This document shows positions 16,776-33,096 of a stretch of DNA of 64,000 nucleotides, piece after piece (the first letter of the stretch is position 1; each line of letters begins with the position of its first letter). The translations under genes and the position numbers were made by a program. Source of the DNA: Pirellulales bacterium (GTDB lineage: Bacteria; Planctomycetota; Planctomycetia; Pirellulales; PALSA-1355); NCBI GenBank assembly GCA_963733035.1, contig CAVTBU010000005.1, forward strand, positions 2,080,001-2,144,000, read 5' to 3'. A model generated the notes under the pieces. That model was not told where the DNA came from. It was given only the letters and a program-made list of their open reading frames with translations, and did not search any database.

Positions 16776-17696
16776 TTAGACCGGCAGCGGTTCGACGTCG
16801 ACCGAGACGTTCATGGCATGTTCTCCCCCGCCGATGAAGACACCTTTAATGGGACAAACGTCGCTGTAGTCGCGACCCCAGGCGACCGTGATGTGTTCGA
16901 GCGACGGCACGACATTGTTTGTCGGATCGAAATCGACCCAGCCGAACCGCGGACACCAGGCCGACACCCAGGCGTGCGAGGCGTCCGCGCCAATCAGACG
17001 CGGCTGTCCGGGCGGGGGAGTCGTCAGCAAGTAACCACTGACGTAACGCGCTGGTAGTCCGAGAGATCGAAAGCAGCCGATTTGCAAGTGGGCAAAATCC
17101 TGGCACACACCGCGCCGCATTTCGAGCACCGTCTCCAGCGGCGTGGCGACGTTGGTGGCGGTCGGATCGTACGAAAAATCGCCGTGGATCCGAGCCATCA
17201 ACTCAAGCGACGCATCGAGCCACGGCCGCCCAGGCGTGAACGAAAGCTTCGCAAAATCGGCCAGCGACAAAAGTGCTGTCACGTGCGGCGAATCATAGAT
17301 GAATTGGCGCACCTCCAAATCGTCGCGCACCGGACCACGTTGCAGACCGGCAATTTCCTCCCACGCGGTTGTCTTATCGGGCGGCAAATACTCCGCAGTA
17401 TGCAGCTCGACTTCACTGTGCGCGGCCACTGACAATTCGTGATGGCGATCTTGAATCGTAAAGAATTGAATCGGGTTGCCAAAGTAGTCGCGGGATTCGT
17501 CGATCTTGTGCGGCAGGGGATTGATTTCCAACCGGTGCGAGCGACACGTTTGCCGGGCGGTGTCGCGCGGCTTGACGTGCAGTTCGTTCTGGCATAGCGG
17601 CACCCCCTCGCTGTAGAGGTAGCGCGTGGCATGCGAGACGCGGTAGCGCGTTCGCGTCGCGCCATTTGACGAACCGAGTTTTGCGCCTGGAGTCAT
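16776..17696 (-). CDS. transglutaminase family protein
   Basis: GVCQDFAH, ARYVSGYL, ASHAWV, GWVDFDPTN, AWGRDYSDV. Confidence 0.95.
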   Translation of the reverse strand: MTPGAKLGSSNGATRTRYRVSHATRYLYSEGVPLCQNELHVKPRDTARQTCRSHRLEINPLPHKIDESRDYFGNPIQFFTIQDRHHELSVAAHSEVELHTAEYLPPDKTTAWEEIAGLQRGPVRDDLEVRQFIYDSPHVTALLSLADFAKLSFTPGRPWLDASLELMARIHGDFSYDPTATNVATPLETVLEMRRGVCQDFAHLQIGCFRSLGLPARYVSGYLLTTPPPGQPRLIGADASHAWVSAWCPRFGWVDFDPTNNVVPSLEHITVAWGRDYSDVCPIKGVFIGGGEHAMNVSVDVEPLPV

Positions 17697-17699
17697 GAT

Positions 17700-20252
17700 C
17701 TATCCGCGTCCGATTTCCGCCAATTGGTGCGCCGGTCCAGCATGGACCAGATACTTGTGCGAAATAGCGCTGGCCAGATCGCGAAGCTTGCCCGCGGAAT
17801 CTTCCAGCATCCTGTCTAGCTTGCCGCGCTGTCCCCGTTCGTCGGGATCGGCCAATGCGTGTACGTCGGCCAAGCGCACGGTCGACACGACCGAAAGGAC
17901 GAGCCGTTGCTCGTCGCTCAGCAGCGGATCGCCCACGGCGCGCGGCAACCGCTCCACGTGGTGGGCCAGGGCTGCAAGTTGATAAGCGATGGCCCGAGGG
18001 TTCGTCTCGTCGGTGATCAGCAGATCCAACAACGGCGCCAATTGCAGGTTGGTGGCGTAGCGGTTGCGATAGGTCATCGAGCTATCAGCGATCTCAAGAA
18101 GCGCTTCGAGCACCGCGTGTTCGCCGCCGGACGCCGTGGACAAGGTGCCTCGCAGTAGCGAAATCATCGCCAGCGCGCGCTCGATCCGGCGGCCCAAATC
18201 GAGAAACTGCCAGCCGGGCCCGCGGGTCATGTTTTCGGTCGCCACGCCGGCAAATGCCGAAAAATTGAAGATCATCTGGTTGAGCATTGCCAACACGTCG
18301 GCGGCTGCAACGTTTCCGCGCGGAAATGACGGCCGGAAGTCGTCGTCCACTCGCTTGAGAATTCGCCACGAGTCGACCGATATCCGATCTCGCACAACCT
18401 TGGCCACGCGGGCCAGTTCCGCAAGAATTGATTGTAGGCTTCCGGGCTGATGCTCGTCGTAGAGAAACTCCATCACGAGCAGCTCCATCGTCGAGACTGT
18501 GCCCGGACTGGAGATTTCGTCAGGCGCGGGAGACAACGGCCCGCAGAGCGCACGGTAGAGCAGGGCAAGTTCCCCCAGGCTACCGGGAGCCGTCTCGCTG
18601 ATTAATCGCGTGAAAATGCTGCGGAGCAACCGCGCCGATCCTTCGGCCCGTTCGACATGCCGGCCGAGCCAGAACAGATTGTCGGCGACGCGGCTCGGCA
18701 GATCGATGCCACTACGACGCGGTTCGACCGGCGTTCCCGGCGCTTGCAGCAGGCTGACTGGCGCCACCGGACCGTCGGCAAGCACCCACACGTCCTTGCT
18801 GCCATGGCCGACGAACAAAGAGTCACCTAGCGTGGCGGGGGACGTGCTGACGTGGGCGAGCGCACCGGGCATTACGTGGTACCCTCCTTCACCGGCAACG
18901 AGAAACGTTCGCAGCGCAATGTGTCCGGGTTTTAGCGACTCATCGTTCCAGACAGGGGCCGTTGACCGCACGACAAGCTCCTGGGCCACGAACTTCGCCG
19001 GCGAGGCCTGGATCTCAGCCGCCAGCCTTTGGCGCATGGCCGGTTCGAGCGACGCCGCGTGCACCGGCTTGCGGCCAGGATGCGGCACGGTTGGACCAAT
19101 CACCAGCCGTTCAAGATTCTCCAGCACGAATTCGCGAGAATCCTCGTCGCCGCACCACCAGGTGCGCACCGACGGAATTTGCAGCTCCTCACCCACGAGA
19201 CGCCGGCAAAGCTCTGGCAGAAAGGCCATCAGGGCGGGTGTTTCCACCAACCCACTTCCCAACGAATTCGCGACAAGAACTTGACCCGACCTCGTGGCGT
19301 TCACAAGACCTGGCACGCCCACGCTCGAATGTCCGTCGAGTTCGAGCGGATCGCAATCCTGATCCATCACGCGACGCAACACGGCGTCGACGCCAACCAG
19401 GCCACCCAGCGTCTTTAGGAACACACGGTTGTCGCGCACCGTCAGATCCTCGCCCTCTACGAGCGTGTAGCCAAGATATCTCGCGAGATACGAGTCCTCG
19501 AAATACGTCGGGCTACTGGGCCCGGGGCTGAGCAACACGATATGCGGCGATTGGCCGCGGCTTGCGGCCAGACTTCCCAGCCGCTGGCGAAGCTTGATGA
19601 AGAAGCCCGCCAACCGCTCAACCTGGCAATGGTGGAAGATGTGCGGCACCATCCGCGAAATGACGATCCGATTCTCCACCGCATAGCCTGGCCCGACGGC
19701 CGCCTGCGTGCGATCGGCCACGACCCACCACGTGCCATCCGGCGATCGTGCCAAATGTGCCGTGTAAAGGTGCAAGTGGCAGTCCTCAGGTACGCGGATA
19801 TCATGACACGGCCGGAGGAAGTCTGGATTGGCAAACACGAGCTCCGGCGGCACCAGACCTTCGCGTACTAGCTGCCGGGGCCCGTAAAAATCGGCCAGGA
19901 TCGCGTTGAGCAACCGCGCCCGCTGGGTCAGCCCTGCGGACAGGACGGTCCACTCGGCATGGCGCATGACGAGCGGCAGAGCGTCGAGTTCCCAGCGTCG
20001 ATCGCGCCCCTGCGGATCACCGTGCACGTTGTACGTGATGCCGTTCTCATGAATCAAACGTTTGGCATGTTGCCAGCGGCGTTCGAGTTCGCCGCGCCCG
20101 AGCGCGTTGAGCAATTGAAAGAATTCCTGCCACTGCGGACGGAGCGTACCGCCGGAGTCGACCAATTCGTCATACACGCCTGGCAGCGGTTGATAGCCGG
20201 CGAGGAGGCTCTCGGCGGCGGGCTTTGCACGGGAAGCTTGCGAGGGGTTCAT
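17700..20252 (-). CDS. circularly permuted type 2 ATP-grasp protein fused to an alpha-E domain
   Basis: YDEL start, GYAVENR, GSKDVWV, then SRVADNLFWLGRHVERAE and LGRRIERA; start at ATG 20252. Confidence 0.93.
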   Translation of the reverse strand: MNPSQASRAKPAAESLLAGYQPLPGVYDELVDSGGTLRPQWQEFFQLLNALGRGELERRWQHAKRLIHENGITYNVHGDPQGRDRRWELDALPLVMRHAEWTVLSAGLTQRARLLNAILADFYGPRQLVREGLVPPELVFANPDFLRPCHDIRVPEDCHLHLYTAHLARSPDGTWWVVADRTQAAVGPGYAVENRIVISRMVPHIFHHCQVERLAGFFIKLRQRLGSLAASRGQSPHIVLLSPGPSSPTYFEDSYLARYLGYTLVEGEDLTVRDNRVFLKTLGGLVGVDAVLRRVMDQDCDPLELDGHSSVGVPGLVNATRSGQVLVANSLGSGLVETPALMAFLPELCRRLVGEELQIPSVRTWWCGDEDSREFVLENLERLVIGPTVPHPGRKPVHAASLEPAMRQRLAAEIQASPAKFVAQELVVRSTAPVWNDESLKPGHIALRTFLVAGEGGYHVMPGALAHVSTSPATLGDSLFVGHGSKDVWVLADGPVAPVSLLQAPGTPVEPRRSGIDLPSRVADNLFWLGRHVERAEGSARLLRSIFTRLISETAPGSLGELALLYRALCGPLSPAPDEISSPGTVSTMELLVMEFLYDEHQPGSLQSILAELARVAKVVRDRISVDSWRILKRVDDDFRPSFPRGNVAAADVLAMLNQMIFNFSAFAGVATENMTRGPGWQFLDLGRRIERALAMISLLRGTLSTASGGEHAVLEALLEIADSSMTYRNRYATNLQLAPLLDLLITDETNPRAIAYQLAALAHHVERLPRAVGDPLLSDEQRLVLSVVSTVRLADVHALADPDERGQRGKLDRMLEDSAGKLRDLASAISHKYLVHAGPAHQLAEIGRG

Positions 20253-20510
20253 CCGCGCCGTTCGTCGCTGGTTTTCAAGAGATTCGCCGTTGTTCGTTCG
20301 TCGAGAATCAAAGCCACAAGTGGCCTGACCCCCTATTATCGCAGATACCCGCCCACACGGAAGGTCATACCCGACGGCCAGCAAACCCACCCGCGCTCAA
20401 CAACGTCGTTCCGTTGGAGTTGTGCGAACAACCCGCGCCACCGACAATCGCGTCGCAATCGAACGTCGGGATCGGCAGCATCCCTTCGCTCCGCCCCTGT
20501 CTTTTTCCGG

Positions 20511-21497
20511 TTACTGTTGAAACGCACGTTGTGCGTGCCCTACCGGGCGCATGGCGAAAAACGTCTCATGGATTGCTTCGCCCACTTGGTTCAAATGCAC
20601 CTGGAACGTATCGATGAATTCATGCAAACCCTGCTCGATGATTTCGCTGATCTGAGTGTAGTCGAGTTGCGAGCGCAGTCGACCCAGTCGCTTCTCGGGG
20701 ATGGTGTGGAAATGTCCGCGCTGGCCGCCCGTGATTGACAAGAGCGACTCCTCGGCCTTGATCAGGCAGAAATGAATCGCGCGGGGGAACTCGCGGTCGA
20801 GAATCAGAAAATCCGCAACCTGAACTGGAAGGATTCGCCCAAATCGTTTGCGGTACATTTCCAGCGCGCTGGCGCTTTCCAGCAGCGCCGACCACTGCAC
20901 CGTGTCGAGCGGAGTGCCCACGTCGGCGGCGGCGGGCAGGAGCACGTAATATTTCACGTCCAGAATGCGGGACGTCTTGTCGGCCCGTTCCAACAGCCGG
21001 CCCATGCGGGCGAAGTGCCAAGCCTCGCCGTGCGACATCGTGGCCACGGTAATTCCCTCCAACAAGTGGCTGGCGAGTTTTACCTCGTTGAAGAACTCGT
21101 AGGCCGAATCCCAAATGTTGGGGTTGGACTTTGCCGAACGCACCATCAGAAAGAATTTATTGAGCTCCTCCCACATCGAGGAACTGATCATTTCGCGCAC
21201 CGTGCGGGCGTTCTCGCGTGCCATCCGCAAGCAGGACAGTATCGAATTCGGGTTGCGCTGGTCAAAGGTCAGAAACTCAATCGCCTTGTGGCGGTCAGGC
21301 TCGCCATAGAGTTCGCGAAACAGCTCGTCGTCGCCGGTCGTTACGACCAGCGGCGCCCACTGATCGGCCGGGTGGATCTCCTCGGCGCCGACGTCCATGG
21401 CCAACTGCAGGTTGACATCGATGAACCGCGCCACGTTCTCGGCGCGCTCAATGTACCGGCTCATCCAAAAGATCGAATCCGCCACACGACTCAGCAT
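20511..21497 (-). CDS. alpha-E domain protein (DUF403)
   Basis: MLSRVADSIFWMSRYIERAEN, GRLLERADKTSRILDVKY. Confidence 0.95.
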   Translation of the reverse strand: MLSRVADSIFWMSRYIERAENVARFIDVNLQLAMDVGAEEIHPADQWAPLVVTTGDDELFRELYGEPDRHKAIEFLTFDQRNPNSILSCLRMARENARTVREMISSSMWEELNKFFLMVRSAKSNPNIWDSAYEFFNEVKLASHLLEGITVATMSHGEAWHFARMGRLLERADKTSRILDVKYYVLLPAAADVGTPLDTVQWSALLESASALEMYRKRFGRILPVQVADFLILDREFPRAIHFCLIKAEESLLSITGGQRGHFHTIPEKRLGRLRSQLDYTQISEIIEQGLHEFIDTFQVHLNQVGEAIHETFFAMRPVGHAQRAFQQ

Positions 21498-21512
21498 GGG
21501 CCAAGCACCGCC

Positions 21513-22961
21513 TTATTTGAGACAGCCGTTTTTCAAGACCCACGTATCCTTGCTACCGCCACCCTGCGACGAGTTCACCACCAGCGAGCCCTTCTTCAGC
21601 GCGACGCGCGTCAGTCCGCCAGGTAGCACGTAGATATCCTTGCCATAGAGGATATAAGGCCGCAAATCGACATGCCGACCTTCGAGCTTGTCTTCCACAA
21701 CCGTGGGCACCTGCGACAGCGACAGCATCGGCTGAGCCACATAGTTTCGCGGGTTGGCACGGATCAGCTCGCGGTACTTGTCGTGTTCCTCTCGAGAGGC
21801 CTTGGGGCCGAGCAAGATGCCATAGCCGCCCGACTCATTCGCCGGCTTGACGACAAGTTTGTCGATGTTGATCAGCACGTGCTCGCATTGTTGCGGATCG
21901 CCGCATACGAATGTCGGCACATTGGGCAACAGAATGTCTTCACCCAAGTAGTACTTGATCATGTCGGGCACATAGGCATACACGGCTTTGTCGTCGGCAA
22001 TGCCAGTGCCGGGGGCATTCGCCAGTGCTACGCGCCCCGATCGATACACGTCGATCAACCCTGGCACACCTAGCGTCGAATCGGCGCGGAACGTTAGCGG
22101 GTCGAGAAAATCGTCATCGAGTCGACGATAAATCACGTCCACGCGCTCGAAACCACTCGTGGTGCGCATGTAGACATAGCCGTCAATCACCACCAGGTCC
22201 GAACCCTGCACCAGTTCGACGCCCATTTGCTGGGCCAGGAAGCAATGCTCGAAGTAAGCCGAGTTGTAGATGCCCGGCGTCATCACCACGACGTTCGGAT
22301 CGCCGACCGACGGCGGCGCAATGTACTGCAACATGCGCAGCAGTTGTTCTGGATAATCCTCGACGGGTTGAATCGACAGCCCTTCGAAGATCTGCGGAAA
22401 CGTCCGCTTCATCACTTCGCGATTTTCGAGCACATACGACACGCCCGACGGACAGCGGAGGTTGTCTTCAAGCACATAGAATTGCCCATCGCCGTCACGC
22501 ACGAGGTCCGTACCCGTGATGTGGCACCAAATACCGTGCGGCGGGTCGAGTCCGGCGCAGCGCGAGAGCAAATTCTTCCCGGAGTCGATCAACCAGTCGG
22601 GAACAACCCCTTCCTTGATGATCCGCCGCTCATGGTAAATGTCGTCGATGAACAGATTGAGCGCCTGGATGCGCTGTTTCAAGCCACGTTCGACGTGGTG
22701 CCACTCTCGCGAGGAAATGATGCGCGGCACGATGTCAAACGGCCACACCTTCTCCGTACCGGCCTCGTGACCGTAGACGTTGAACGTGATGCCCATATTT
22801 AGCAGGGCCAGATCGGCGGCCTTCTGCCGCCGCTCGAGTTCGCCGTCCGACAGCGCGCTTAGACGCTGCGTGAGCATCTGCGCGAGCGGCCGAGGGTGGC
22901 CGTCGGACTCGAACATCTCGTCGTAGAATCCGCCGGTTTGATAGGCGTCGAACTTGACCAT
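21513..22961 (-). CDS. circularly permuted type 2 ATP-grasp protein
   Basis: [41 protein letters not shown]. Confidence 0.96.
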
Positions 22962-23386
22962 CGTACGCCTCCTAAAGATTCATCTCTTGCGCGGCCGCGC
23001 TTCCCTCTGATCGAATAGACGATCGTGCCGGCCGGTGCCCAGCAACAGGGCAGGGGCCGTCGAACGAATAGGCAATTCAACCGCAAAACGCCTGCTTATC
23101 TTAAGTTTCGTGTATCAGACGCAAACCACATGCCTAACGCAAGGCCCAACGTCCTGGCGTGCCGGCAGTTTGCTGCGGTTGCGAAAATCGTCCCGGCTCC
23201 GGTGCTCGAGGTTGTAGCGATCCGAGAAGCGACTCGACCAGCCACAAACGCACAGCCAAATAGTTGACTGAACAACCCGAATCATTCAACCGGAGCCCGC
23301 CCGTGGAGATTCGGCGCACGGTGAACGTCGAGTTCGCAACCCCAAAACAGGGACTTGTCGCGAAGCCACGCCGTCTGAGCGACGGA

Positions 23387-25664: not shown

Positions 25665-25863
25665 CGACGGAAACCTCCAGTGCAATGGTTGGCACGCGGG
25701 CTGGCTACCAGCCTAATAGAGCGCACTGGCCGGCTCAAATCGCAACCCCCGGACAGCCCGTTCCTGCTCGGCGCCGTCCCGTGGTGCGCCCACTTCCTTT
25801 TGCGACGTCGCTCGCATGCCGGCCGGGGTTGGAGCGTCAATTGACGGACGGAAATCAAAGATG

Positions 25864-25902
25864 TTGACACGACGTGTTATTTCGACAATACTGTCGAAAT
25901 AA
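25864..25902 (+). promoter_or_regulatory. promoter with overlapping palindromic operator (probable TetR site)
   Basis: TTGACA at 25864, AATACT 17 nt later; perfect inverted repeat TTATTTCGACA-ATAC-TGTCGAAATAA at 25877-25902. Confidence 0.8.
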
Positions 25903-25919
25903 GGTTGAGGGACTTCGAT

Positions 25920-26501
25920 ATGCCGAAACTCGTCGACCACGACAGCCTGCGGCGTCAAATTCGTGCGGCCGCGACAGAGGTATTTGCCGCGCGCGGCGTC
26001 AAAGGCACTGGCCTGGCTCACGTTGCCGACGCGATGGGCATTGGCCGCTCAAGTCTCTACCACTACTACTCCGACAAGGCCACGCTGATTGCGGATATCG
26101 CCAGTGATCTGCTTGCGCGGGAAGCCAAGATGTTCCGCGAAGCCTTGGAGGATGACCGACCCGTTGAACAGAGACTAAACACGTTAATCCGCCAGCTCAC
26201 AAGCGTACTGGACGAGTGGGCCGCGGTCGGACCGGCAGTGCTCGATCTGCGCTCGGTAACGAGTCCTCAGTTCCGGAAGTTTTACCGTCGGATCCGTCAG
26301 GACCTGGCCGCGCTTATTGCCGAAGGGCAGCGGGCTGGCCAGTTTGGAACGCAACTCAGCGCGGACCACGCCTCGAGCCTTGTCATTGCAATCGTCGACG
26401 GATTGCTACTGCAGTACATGGCCGATGCGCGGGCGATTCCTCGCGGTCGACAACTTGAGCGTCTTTTGGCATGGTCCATTTGGAGACTCCTTCAGCCATG
26501 A
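25920..26501 (+). CDS. TetR/AcrR family transcriptional regulator
   Basis: AATEVFAARGVKGTGLAHVADAMGIGRSSLYHYYSDK; GAGG SD upstream. Confidence 0.95.
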   Translation: MPKLVDHDSLRRQIRAAATEVFAARGVKGTGLAHVADAMGIGRSSLYHYYSDKATLIADIASDLLAREAKMFREALEDDRPVEQRLNTLIRQLTSVLDEWAAVGPAVLDLRSVTSPQFRKFYRRIRQDLAALIAEGQRAGQFGTQLSADHASSLVIAIVDGLLLQYMADARAIPRGRQLERLLAWSIWRLLQP

Positions 26502-27147
26502 GCACACTTGCGCTAATGCGATGGCTTGAGTCGGCTCCCGATCGCTACGACTGGGGAATGATTGCACTGACGCTTGGACGGGTGCGCGAGCTTCATCGGG
26601 CCATCGCCACCGCGGCGGTGCGCTCGGCCGGCACCAGGGTGCTCGAAATCGGCTGCGGAACGGGAACGGTTACGTGGTTGATGGCCGAATTGGGCGCGAT
26701 TGTAACCGGCGTCGACCAGAATCCGCAAATGCTTGAAATCGCCCGTCAGCGACTGACGAAGTATGCCGGGATTGAATTCGTCGAACAGACCGCCGCGGAA
26801 ATCGACTCATTTGGCGACGGCGCCTTCGACGCGGTCGTGGCAAGCCTGTCGCTGTCAGAAATGTCGAGCGATGAGCGAATCTATGTGTTCCAGCAGGCCA
26901 GAAAGCTGCTCGCCGACAATGGAGTTTTGGTGGTCGGCGACGAAGTGATTGCCCGGCCCTATTGGGCCCGAGTGTTGCAATTTGTCCTGCGACTGCCTCA
27001 AGCGCTAATGGGCTGGATTCTGGTTGGCAGCGTCTCGCGCCCATCCGCGATCTGCCCGGCGAATTACATCGCGCTGGCTTCGAAGTACGGCAAGAACGGT
27101 TCTTCCTAATGCGAACATTGACGGTAGTCGTTGCCGAGCCCGAATGA
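26498..27147 (+). CDS. cpaM: class I SAM-dependent methyltransferase, corrinoid-protein-associated (CpaM-like); apparent frameshift near 27040
   Basis: LESAPDRYD N-terminus, VLEIGCGTG, GVDQNPQML, FDAVVASLSLSE; ATGA overlaps with both neighbours once the frameshift is repaired; family name recalled, not searched. Confidence 0.75.
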
Positions 27148-28271
27148 TGCGTACACTTCCCAAACGCTTCGTGCATCTATTGCTGGATGTTCTTCAGACC
27201 ATCTTCCGCATGCTTCCGTGGCCCACGCAGACCGGGTTGCGAATCATCGGAAACCCAGGACCCACGAGTCCCGTGTTGATCACGGGGAACTACGATTTGA
27301 CCGTGCGTCGCCTGTTGCGCGCCATGCGGGGATACGACGCCTGGCTGATCGTCGCGCCGTCGCAGGGCGTCAACGTCTGGTGTGCCGCGGCGGGCGGACA
27401 TTTCGGAACGCATCAGGTCGTCACCGCAATCAAGACCTCGGGCATCGAACAGCGCGTTCAGCACCGCCATGCGATTCTGCCGCAATTGGCCGGCACGGGC
27501 GTTGTCGCGCAAGATGTCGCTCGCCGCGTCGGCTGGCGCGTGGCATTTGGTCCCGTTTACGCGAAGGATTTGCCGGCCTTTCTCAACGCCGGACAGCAAG
27601 CCACCGCCGCGATGCGCCGCGCCCATTTCACGCCGCGCGAGCGGCTGGAAATGATGATCGCCTGGGCGGCACCGACCAGCCTCGTGTTGGCCATTGGTTT
27701 TGGCCTCCTTGCGAGGGAGTGGCTCTTACCGGTGCTGGTTCTCACCTGGATCTTGGCCGCGACCGTTTACCTATTTGTATTCGAGTGGATCCCCGGCCCT
27801 CGCAAAGTCGTGCTGGCCGCAATTTCGACGGGCCTGGCCTCCGCCTACGTTTTCACCACTGGCGGGAGCACCCTGACAACCGTCGCTGCCGGAGTCATCG
27901 CGTTCGGCCTCGCGTGGCTGCTGTCCTTCGATTACACCGGCTCGACACCCGATCACGCGGTCGATCATTTTGACGAATCGGACTTTCACATCGCGCTGGA
28001 CAAGGACCGCTGCACCGGTGCGTTCGTGTGCTTGAAAGTCTGCCCCGAGGGCGTGTTCGAACCAGCAGCCAAGGCGAAGAAGATCGACCTCGTGCATGGC
28101 GAACAATGCGTGCGCTGCGCGGCCTGCATTGTCCAGTGTCCAAGAGATGCGCTTTTTCTAGAAGACCATCAAGGCCGCCGTATCACGCCTGACGTCATTC
28201 GTCAATTCAAGCTCAATCTGCTCGGCCGTCGCGCGACTGTGGCGGCCGGCTCGAATACGTCACGCGAATAA
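27144..28271 (+). CDS. HgcAB-like fusion: corrinoid-binding (CdhD/HgcA-type) domain, ~4 TM helices, C-terminal ferredoxin
   Basis: GNPGPTSPVLITGNYDLT, GVNVWCAAAGG, ILPQLAGTGV, FGPVYAKDLPAFL; CTGAFVCLKVCP and CVRCAACIVQCP. Confidence 0.92.
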   Translation: MMRTLPKRFVHLLLDVLQTIFRMLPWPTQTGLRIIGNPGPTSPVLITGNYDLTVRRLLRAMRGYDAWLIVAPSQGVNVWCAAAGGHFGTHQVVTAIKTSGIEQRVQHRHAILPQLAGTGVVAQDVARRVGWRVAFGPVYAKDLPAFLNAGQQATAAMRRAHFTPRERLEMMIAWAAPTSLVLAIGFGLLAREWLLPVLVLTWILAATVYLFVFEWIPGPRKVVLAAISTGLASAYVFTTGGSTLTTVAAGVIAFGLAWLLSFDYTGSTPDHAVDHFDESDFHIALDKDRCTGAFVCLKVCPEGVFEPAAKAKKIDLVHGEQCVRCAACIVQCPRDALFLEDHQGRRITPDVIRQFKLNLLGRRATVAAGSNTSRE

Positions 28272-30638: not shown

Positions 30639-31655
30639 TCAATCGTCGTACAGCATCACCATTGTCCGTCCATCGGATGTAACGTAGCCTCGGAACAAGC
30701 CGGGCGTATTGAACGGGGCCGTGAATTGACCATCCGCGCCGAGGGCGATCACACCCCCTTCGCCGCCGGCCGGTTTGAGCTTCTTTTGGATCACTTCGGC
30801 GGCCGCCGCTTCGATCGACATTCCCCTGTATTTCATCAGCGCGGCGATGTCGTGGCAGGCGGCGTAGCGAATGAAGTATTCGCCCTCGCCGGTCCCGGAC
30901 ACCGCACACACGCCATTCTCGGCATAGGTGCCGGCACCGACGATCGGTGAGTCGCCGATGCGGCCGTACATCTTGTTGTTGCGGCCACCGGTCGAGGTGG
31001 CGGCCGCCAAATTGCCTGCCGTGTCGCGGGCAACGGCTCCGACAGTTCCCCAGGGTTCTTTCTCCGTCAGCTCGGTACTCGCTTGCCGCTTGGCCTCCTC
31101 GGCTTCACGCTGCCAAACTTTTTGAATTTGCCGCCAGCGTCGTTCGGTCCAGAAGTAGGCCGGATCGACGGTTTCCAAGCCCACCTTGGCGGCGAACACT
31201 TCGGCGCCCCGTCCGGCAAGAATCACGTGCTTCGTCTTCTCCATCACGGCGCGGGCCGCGGTGACCGGATTCTTGATGACCGTGACACTGGCAACGGCTC
31301 CTGCCTGCAGGTTGCGGCCGTCCATGATCGAGGCGTCCATCTCGTTCTGGCCTTCGTGCGTGAACACCGCGCCTTTGCCAGCATTAAAGTGGGGCGAGTC
31401 TTCCAATACCCGCACCGCCGCCTCGACGGCGTCGAGTGCCGTGCCGCCAGATCGCTTGAGCACCGCTTGGCCGGTTTCCAGAGCCCGTTGCATGTCGGCT
31501 CGCACCAACTTTTCGAGCTCTGGCGAGAGCTCCGCCCGGGCGCCAGCCGCGCCGCCATGTATCGCCAGCACAACATTCGGCACGGGCGAGTCGGCCGAAA
31601 CGACCGAAGCCACGACGGCCACCATGAGAAGCGAGAATAACAGACTTTGCAGCAT
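30639..31655 (-). CDS. iaaA: isoaspartyl peptidase/L-asparaginase (Ntn hydrolase), with signal peptide
   Basis: LAIHGGA, FNAGKG, GTVGAVA, ATSTGG, GRIGDSP, VSGTGEGE. Confidence 0.93.
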   Translation of the reverse strand: MLQSLLFSLLMVAVVASVVSADSPVPNVVLAIHGGAAGARAELSPELEKLVRADMQRALETGQAVLKRSGGTALDAVEAAVRVLEDSPHFNAGKGAVFTHEGQNEMDASIMDGRNLQAGAVASVTVIKNPVTAARAVMEKTKHVILAGRGAEVFAAKVGLETVDPAYFWTERRWRQIQKVWQREAEEAKRQASTELTEKEPWGTVGAVARDTAGNLAAATSTGGRNNKMYGRIGDSPIVGAGTYAENGVCAVSGTGEGEYFIRYAACHDIAALMKYRGMSIEAAAAEVIQKKLKPAGGEGGVIALGADGQFTAPFNTPGLFRGYVTSDGRTMVMLYDD

Positions 31656-31835
31656 GAGCACGGCCCTCAAAACTTGAAGAAGCCAACGGGGCGGAACGGC
31701 AAAATGCCGCGATTCAGGATATGCGGGGACAACGTCGCGATCAAACTGGAGTTCGCCCCGTTTACAGCGCGCGCTAAGTTTCCGATGATGCAGATCGTAC
31801 TTGCCTCTCCAGCACCTGTGTCACCCGGCATTTCC

Positions 31836-33096
31836 ATGTCTGATTCTGTCGAATCCTCCCCCGTGGCCGAACCATGCGAGGCTGCGCCGCGTGAAACCGC
31901 TGTCGGCTTTGCCACCTCGCAGGTCACTCTCAAGCCGCGCAAGGCACGACCGTTTTATGGCCGGCACCCGTGGGTGCTCGATTCGGCGGTGGCGCGTGTC
32001 GCAGGCGACGCTGCTGACGGCGATGTTGTCGATCTGATCAGCGATGCTGGCAAATTCGTGGCCCGCGGGATTTTCAACAGCCGCAGCCGAATTCGCGTGC
32101 GACTCTACACTTGGGACATCAATCAGCCACTCGCCGAAGCGTTCTGGCGGAGCAAGCTGGAAACGGCTCTCGCACTGCGGCACTCGCTAGGACTCGATGC
32201 CCGCGACGGTGCCGCCCGACTTGTCTTTAGCGAGGCGGACGGGCTGAGCGGACTGGTCGTCGATCGCTACGCCGACTGGCTGGCCGTGCAAGTGACCGGT
32301 TTGGGGATCGCACGGCGGCTTGAGGAAATCGTGGGCCAACTGCGGGAACTCATCCAGCCGCGCGGTATTTTCATCCGCACCGAAAAGGGCGTCGCCAGCG
32401 CGGAGGGGATCGAACTGCGCGATGGCTTGTATTGGGGCGACGCGCCGCAAGGCCCGGTGTTCATCACCGAAAACGATTTGAGGTATGGCGTCGATCTGGC
32501 TGAAGGGCAGAAAACGGGCTTCTATGTTGATCAGCGCGATAACCGCCTGGCGGCGGCGCGCTACTTTCGCAATCGGCGCGTCCTCGACATGTTCTGCTAC
32601 AGCGGCGGTTTCAGTCTTAATGCTGCCCGGCATGGCCAGGCTCGGGAAGTGATCGGTTTCGATTCCAGCGCCAAGGCGGTCGCTCTGGCGCAAGCGAATG
32701 CCGAACTGAATCAGGTGACCAACACGCGTTTCGAAGCGTCCGATAGTTTCAAAGCACTGGATGCCTTGCGTGACAACGGCGAGAAGTTCGGAGCCGTGAT
32801 TCTCGACCCGCCCAAATTCGCGCAGTCGCGGCTCAGTTGTCGATGCTCTCCGGGCCTATCACCGCCTCAACCGGCAGGCAGTGGAACTGCTTGAACCAGG
32901 CGGTATCCTCGTCACCTGCAGTTGCTCAGGTCACGTCACTCGCGAGGATTTTTTCTTCATGCTATTGGGGGTTGCCGAGCAGACGGGTCGCGATATCCAA
33001 GTGCTCGAAACGCGCGGCGCTTCGGCCGACCACCCCACGAGCGTGACTTGCCTCGAAAGTGAATATCTGAAATGTTTTATCTGCCGTCTGACGTAA
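31836..33096 (+). CDS. rlmI: RlmI-family 23S rRNA m5C1962 methyltransferase (apparent frameshift near 32830)
   Basis: HPWV PUA domain, SEADGLSGLVVDRY, GQKTGFYVDQRDNR, LDPPKF; TCSCS and ESEYLK in a second frame. Confidence 0.9.

Follow-up and report, generated by a model that had tools for sequence, protein, structure and literature searches.

A TetR, CpaM and HgcAB-like fusion operon in a Pirellulales bacterium, a candidate system for SAM- and corrinoid-dependent methylation

The operon and its products

A 64,000-nucleotide stretch of the Pirellulales bacterium assembly GCA_963733035.1 (contig CAVTBU010000005.1, positions 2,080,001 to 2,144,000; here called the window, with coordinates counted from its first base) carries a cassette of three genes that form a real operon, comprising a repressor with a site of its own, a methyltransferase that uses S-adenosylmethionine (SAM) and a membrane protein with cobalamin (B12) and iron-sulphur (Fe-S) domains. 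The locus itself is not a discovery. The pair made up of the methyltransferase gene, cpaM, and the gene for the HgcAB-like fusion protein is already catalogued, and the pairing is not new because NCBIfam curates both families and names CpaM for the association. A full-text literature search, with subscription journals and preprint supplements outside its reach, found no paper on CpaM, on the two family models (NF043039 and NF043040) or on this TetR, and the main text of bioRxiv 2022.07.06.499078 mentions neither the fusion nor CpaM. The features of the locus are as follows.

25864–25892, plus strand: sigma-70-like promoter, TTGACA-17-AATACT (10 of 12 positions match; one found against 0.7 in shuffles)
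25877–25902, no strand: operator, a perfect inverted repeat with 11-bp arms and a 4-bp spacer, core TCGACA-N4-TGTCGA, overlapping the −10 box; conserved in orthologues
25920–26501, plus strand: gene for a TetR-family repressor of 193 amino acids (aa) with a BetI-type C-terminal domain and without cysteine; Pfam TetR_N and TetR_C_6 above cut-off
26498–27147, plus strand: cpaM, class I SAM methyltransferase, with a frameshift near 27040 in the assembly; NF043040 and a two-frame homologue match
27144–28271, plus strand: gene for the HgcAB-like fusion, with a corrinoid domain, four membrane helices, a ferredoxin and the tail RFKLNLLGRR; NF043039, 120 homologues and a structural model

The cassette is flanked by a sulfatase gene on one side and a YdjC-like gene on the other, each on the minus strand. 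The ATGA at 26498–26501 joins the tetR stop to the methyltransferase start, exactly as an earlier note on this DNA had claimed. A second ATGA, at 27144–27147, opens the fusion gene; the note had counted it as an equivalent joint, and the letters are indeed present, but the overlap with cpaM exists only across a one-base frameshift because the cpaM frame as assembled, which the note had read as open to 27147, stops at 27109 (TAA at 27107–27109) and yields a product of 203 aa.

The protein encoded by the third gene passes the curated cut-off for HgcAB-like fusion proteins (NF043039; 391.6 bits against 285, over profile positions 3–349 of 350) and fails those for the mercury methylation proteins HgcA (NF040863; 168.2 bits against 275) and HgcB (NF040864; 47 bits against 99). 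The profile comparison that the earlier note had proposed thus supports its description of the gene as HgcAB-like rather than as HgcA. One chain holds a CdhD/HgcA-type corrinoid domain (residues 24–144), membrane helices and a ferredoxin. An AlphaFold model (pLDDT 84), which by fold is closest to the HgcAB model 9a0b and the corrinoid iron-sulphur protein (CFeSP), places four hydrophobic helices at residues 163–188, 190–208, 219–237 and 242–260, with hydropathy peaks at 170, 193, 221 and 243. This is the architecture that the note had described, except that the first of the two ferredoxin motifs is degenerate, reading CxxAxxCxxxCP rather than the CxxCxxCxxxCP of the second.

The cap helix of the corrinoid domain reads NVWCAAAGG, its cysteine being Cys79 when counted from 27147. 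Among the best 120 homologues, taken from 2628 proteins found among 8000 scored candidates, the helix is NVWCAAAGG in 63 and NVWCAASGG in 52, the rest being close variants; Cys79, Gly83 and Gly84 are invariant in all 120, and a GK ending occurs in none. The second position of the first Fe-S motif is Val in 90 of these proteins, Ile in 16, Ala in 13 and Thr in 1, and is never Cys; the canonical form of both motifs is kept in 4 of 80 metagenome loci and in two genome loci, on deeper branches. The second motif of our protein stands in the context CVRCAA, not C(M/I)ECGA, with no Cys following it, and the conserved tail is likewise without Cys, the last 25 residues being Cys-free in 120 of 120 fusions. 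In the HgcAB model described in PMC7305189 it is the second-motif cluster that lies nearest the cobalt, and therefore the proximal cluster of the fusion is expected to be intact and the distal one degenerate.

With HgcA and HgcB the fusion shares a homologous corrinoid domain, the cap-helix Cys (the equivalent of Cys93), a membrane domain and a dicluster-type ferredoxin. It differs from them in being a single polypeptide, in a cap helix that ends in AGG instead of GK and does not meet the HgcA motif N[V/I]WC[A/S][A/G/S]GK, in having four helices (by model and hydropathy) against the five described for HgcA (PMC7305189), in lacking HgcB Cys73, Cys94 and Cys95 as well as one Cys of the first cluster motif, and in having a methyltransferase of its own. 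Most HgcA proteins are reported to carry an N-terminal CU (Cys-Sec) extension (bioRxiv 2022.07.06.499078), and the fusion does not: its start lies across the stop of cpaM, and neither a CU nor a CC pair is found in the frame upstream. In a quick tree (SH-aLRT) of 100 corrinoid domains, of modest support and with many open forks, the fusion falls among the HgcAB-like rows and apart from 29 hgcA and 13 AcsC rows. One locus labelled HgcAB-like in that tree (L053) was rejected as such, since it passes the HgcA cut-off.

The large subunit of CFeSP (AcsC/CdhE, PF03599), which acts with the methyltransferase MeTr, has a cobalamin-binding fold in common with the fusion (2h9a, E 7e-12 by sequence) and offers a second case of a corrinoid protein paired with a methyltransferase. 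CFeSP, however, is soluble, lacks the cap-helix Cys and takes its methyl group from methyl-tetrahydrofolate. The host genome contains no second CdhD-family (PF03599) gene and therefore no Wood-Ljungdahl corrinoid protein.

The 203-aa product of the second gene passes the model for corrinoid protein-associated methyltransferases (NF043040; 222.2 bits against 180). It is also a weak profile match to the UbiE/MenG/Coq5 C-methyltransferases (TIGR01934, 50 bits) and a fold match to Coq5 (4obw, TM 0.78), but lies far below the cut-off of the former (158 bits) and has 13% identity to the latter, and CpaM loci are without quinone-pathway neighbours except for an ABC1 kinase gene in L090 and L106. Only Cys53, the SAM-motif Cys, is invariant among 119 CpaM homologues. 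An assignment as an ArsM arsenite methyltransferase was rejected: ArsM needs conserved arsenic-binding cysteines, which CpaM does not have, and CpaM scores 31 bits on the ArsM model NF008823 against a cut-off of 263. A search of the ESM Atlas with CpaM returned generic methyltransferase clusters only.

Pairing and distribution

In passing both cut-offs, in gene order and in domain layout this copy agrees with the general NF043039/NF043040 pair (the 'fused HgcAB' of Podar 2015 and Gilmour 2018); it differs in belonging to a subclade with a dedicated TetR, a conserved operator and a degenerate first Fe-S motif. The methyltransferase and the fusion go together from locus to locus. The 80 metagenome loci that we compared, the best of 536 confirmed ones, fall into 69 clusters at 95% identity, of which 54 have at least 300 bp of upstream sequence. 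In 53 of these 54 cpaM lies directly upstream of the fusion gene (one with a 1.2-kb gap), and the exception, L154, has a cyclase gene there on a short contig. The earlier note had staked its proposal on such co-occurrence, which is borne out. No CpaM orthologue was found at any of 39 control loci with an hgcA-type cap helix (two checked against NF040863, 23 placed in the quick tree and the rest assigned by motif only), where the best match, at 78 bits, is an ArsM. Among 401 sampled genomes of the phylum both families score above cut-off in the same three (G000, G306 and G395), and NF043039 is passed in 3 of 301 genomes of the order, with cpaM adjacent also in the two of these besides the present one. 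Pairwise distances of CpaM and of the fusion are correlated (Spearman 0.85 over 48 pairs, against 0.24 for the best of 500 shuffles), a result that shows joint inheritance and not contact, since shared ancestry alone would give it.

The cassette was not found in 32 genomes of the same family. In a genome of the same genus the slot between the sulfatase and YdjC-like genes is occupied by an unrelated gene of 1302 aa, and the cassette is therefore accessory. Its GC content and codon-position GC match those of its flanks; there is therefore no compositional sign of recent transfer. Hosts in the close subclade are labelled Myxococcota, Binatus, Deltaproteobacteria and Planctomycetota by their sources.

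We scanned 85 flanking open reading frames (ORFs; 100 picked plus one added from L045, with 16 short ones left out). A link to metals is possible for two of them, an ArsR gene and a P-type ATPase. The remainder are mixed and include several genes of lipid and aromatic catabolism, which may only reflect the hosts. The one locus seen with a possible metal sensor is L045:331–1929 (genome G282), where a frameshifted cpaM and a truncated HgcAB-like gene are immediately preceded by a gene of the ArsR family with a tail rich in Cys and His; an apparent methyltransferase–corrinoid fusion at the same locus was dismissed as a frameshift artefact. At L031:924–4068 a true hgcA–hgcB pair (cap helix NVWCAAGEG) has a double-domain ArsM gene immediately upstream. 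An adenylate/guanylate cyclase-type gene is found at or near the pair in L135, L143, L154 and L163, with GAF domains in L135 and L143, and at three of these four loci the fusions have both canonical Fe-S motifs. Elsewhere in the window, two circularly permuted ATP-grasp genes, alpha-E domains and a transglutaminase-like gene (16779–22979) make up an ordinary known module.

The operator and the frameshift in cpaM

Among perfect inverted repeats with arms of 8 bp or more and a gap no longer than 5, the one at 25877–25902 is the longest in the window; it overlies the −10 box of the TTGACA-17-AATACT site. The core of the repeat, TCGAC-N6-GTCGA with up to 1 mismatch allowed, lies within 80 bp of the start in 19 of 19 dereplicated tetR orthologues, whereas of 28 cpaM loci that have no tetR just 1 shows it (windows of 300 bp). 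TetR thus probably regulates its own operon through the predicted operator, as the earlier note had supposed. Where that note saw a single promoter with a perfect operator, the operator proves both perfect and conserved, but the promoter taken by itself is no better than chance; in several orthologous loci (for example L099, L106, L123 and L151) the operator is preceded, at about the same spacing, by a TTGAC hexamer. The 6.6-Mb genome contains three exact copies of the core, of which this one alone has AT-rich flanks. The regulon is therefore probably this operon alone, and the operator search of the host genome gave no further members.

No Cys is conserved across 19 aligned orthologues of this TetR, and a search of the ESM Atlas with it returned generic TetR clusters only. 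The regulatory setting varies among loci: a tetR orthologue lies downstream of the fusion and not upstream of cpaM at L115:1138–1713, in two distant loci (L159:1368–1937 and L164:1925–2497) the gene that comes after the fusion encodes a regulator of the PadR family, and a second TetR type lies near the pair in L142. Between the sulfatase gene and the divergent tetR, 18 bp ahead of the −35 box, there is a short palindrome with 6-bp arms, CGTCAATTGACG (window 25835–25846), which may be due to chance.

The break in cpaM is very probably an assembly or sequencing error. Four homologues of 216 aa match one frame over residues 1–182 (70–75%) and another over residues 181–216 (61–69%), and the tail frame, which supplies the last 36 residues, ends at 27144, immediately ahead of the TGA within the second ATGA. 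The site is covered by a contig from one read run, belonging to a related strain (34 differing letters in 836, depth 4.7), that has one extra C at 27039; runs X1, X2 and X4 do not reach it. The missing base falls within a C run. Of 145 orthologous genes compared, taken from 400 kb of a genome of the same genus, 22 change frame in the assembly, and a gene for heme-copper oxidase subunit I (COX1) is split into two frames (G000:C5:706000–707339), which fits a high indel rate. An error is likely because the related strain has the base and because these orthologues change frame as well. An RlmI-like methyltransferase gene (PUA and SAM domains) at window 31647–32894 appears to end early in an odd tail, probably through a further assembly frameshift.

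It is improbable that the cassette is instead a recently broken, non-functional copy in which the frameshift is real and the last strands of the fold are lost, a matter separate from the function of the family. The break is there in the assembled sequence, the cassette is accessory and was not found in the 32 same-family genomes, and the sole contig across the site is that of a different strain; yet the tail is as well conserved as the rest of the gene, the missing base sits in a homopolymer and is present in the relative, and frame changes, that of COX1 included, recur across the assembly.

A possible methyl relay and its alternatives

We tentatively favour, with somewhat less than even confidence, a reading in which CpaM acts on the Cys-ligated cobalt, driving its methylation from SAM, and the methyl group passes to a non-mercury, probably lipophilic organic acceptor. 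Seated on the operator that overlies the −10 box, TetR would keep the operon repressed until it bound a small organic ligand. The fusion, by analogy with HgcA, would bind a salvaged cobamide through its cap-helix Cys, and its ferredoxin domain would feed electrons to the cobalt; the degenerate cluster motif, its second Cys gone, probably holds a [3Fe-4S] or site-differentiated cluster, and the other motif is intact. CpaM with SAM may pull the unfavourable Co(II) to Co(I) step by methylating the cobalt, the same pull that is exerted by the reactivation domain of methionine synthase, and could in this way compensate for a weaker reductant, as would suit an oxygen-using host. The methyl-cobalt would then methylate its acceptor at the membrane face, the likeliest acceptor being a lipophilic organic compound related to the TetR ligand.

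The host genome encodes several heme-copper oxidases, and its use of B12 is indicated by two B12-binding-domain genes over cut-off, an adenosyltransferase gene and a cobalamin riboswitch; CobS had no match in the genome, which is 92% complete. We favour the relay because both families pass their curated cut-offs and cpaM is upstream of nearly every fusion gene and at none of the hgcA-type loci, because both families occur in the same few genomes with correlated distances in a host that uses B12, because TetR and CpaM have no conserved metal-binding Cys, and because Cys79 is invariant in a protein whose relative HgcAB is reported to move a methyl group from SAM onto Cys-ligated Co(I), and from there to mercury, with no partner methyltransferase (PMC11588087).

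Several points weigh against this reading. Purified HgcAB was methylated by SAM without a partner enzyme, according to the same source, and CpaM therefore need not be the cobalt-loading enzyme. By profile and fold CpaM resembles ordinary small-molecule methyltransferases (UbiE/MenG, Coq5, CmoA, CysG and phospholipid N-methyltransferase). The tetR gene is confined to the close subclade, being present at 17 of 25 loci with at least 47% identity and at 0 of 17 below that threshold, which was set after the data had been seen. No third conserved neighbour gene that points to a substrate was found among 84 loci, one distant locus has an ArsR-family gene upstream of cpaM, and the contig across the frameshift is from a related strain, with no read of this exact strain covering the site.

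The nearest competitor of the relay, possible though on the unlikely side, is that the pair carries out two separate steps in a single pathway, CpaM methylating a small lipophilic molecule from SAM in the manner of UbiE/MenG and the fusion acting separately on the same molecule, either by self-methylation from SAM like HgcAB or as a Co(I) reductant (for example in halogen removal or epoxide opening). The kinship of CpaM with small-molecule methyltransferases speaks for such a division, as do the regulators near the pair (the TetR, the second TetR type in L142 and PadR in L159 and L164), which come from families that usually sense organic compounds, and the likeness to reductive dehalogenases, which likewise combine cobalamin, two Fe-S clusters and a membrane anchor. 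The lack of any requirement for a partner methyltransferase in HgcAB (PMC11588087) points the same way. The characterised members of the corrinoid fold, CFeSP and HgcA, are methyl carriers, however, the cobalt-ligating Cys is invariant, and near-obligate pairing with a SAM enzyme is more simply explained by direct coupling. A module for methylation or detoxification of a metal(loid) (As, Sb, Se, Te or similar), an option raised in the earlier note, comes out weakened and is quite improbable: it would suit a sister group of HgcA that shares its Cys-on cap helix, the ArsR-family gene directly before cpaM in L045 and the P-type ATPase gene downstream, on the other strand, in L170, but the TetR is Cys-free with none conserved among its orthologues, CpaM keeps only its SAM-motif Cys, the fusions have no HgcB-type Cys and end in Cys-free tails, and 2 of 85 flanking ORFs are possibly metal-related, unlike the arsenic genes reported beside true hgcAB (PMC7438021).

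Methyl scavenging, in which the corrinoid would take a methyl group from the substrate and CpaM would pass it on, we consider very unlikely. The fold is related to that of CFeSP, and corrinoid proteins of anaerobes do act as methyl acceptors, but CpaM is a Rossmann class I SAM enzyme and not one of the MT1/MT2 type, which are TIM-barrel enzymes, and the host is without a second CdhD-family gene. The earlier suggestion that the methyltransferase might accept a methyl group from the corrinoid is unlikely for a class I SAM enzyme because transfer from SAM to Co(I) is strongly downhill. That the fusion is a true mercury methylase is scarcely credible. It retains the cap-helix Cys, and, as Podar et al. 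point out, failure in a culture test is no proof against methylation by the fused protein (PMC4646819); the HgcA and HgcB cut-offs are failed all the same, as are the six high-stringency cap-helix motifs and the C(M/I)ECGA motif given in PMC10087281. The protein further lacks equivalents of Cys73, Cys94 and Cys95, which are described as needed for activity, Cys73 together with a tail Cys (PMC7305189), and the two cultured organisms with fused genes are reported to have made no methylmercury (PMC4646819 and PMC5893877; also PMC10083202 and PMC10087281).

The fused HgcAB-like proteins are the sister group of the mercury methylase, and the question of their function has been standing since 2015. 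To it this locus adds an experimental handle, the TetR and its operator, and no new clue to the substrate; the substrate class could come from a ligand screen because a TetR with a sharply conserved operator appears to control only this operon. The locus also calls for caution in mercury surveys, as the fusion scores 168 bits on the HgcA profile in an oxygen-using host and is without the residues required for mercury methylation. A bolder form of the favoured relay, which we rate as unlikely, is an oxygen-tolerant membrane SAM/cobalamin methylase of a new type, with no radical-SAM domain, in which the class I enzyme would load the Cys-ligated cobalt and the three-Cys Fe-S cluster would help to pass the methyl group, as a radical or carbanion, to a lipophilic organic acceptor. 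If true, such a methylase could reflect the original job of the hgc lineage, mercury methylation being derived.

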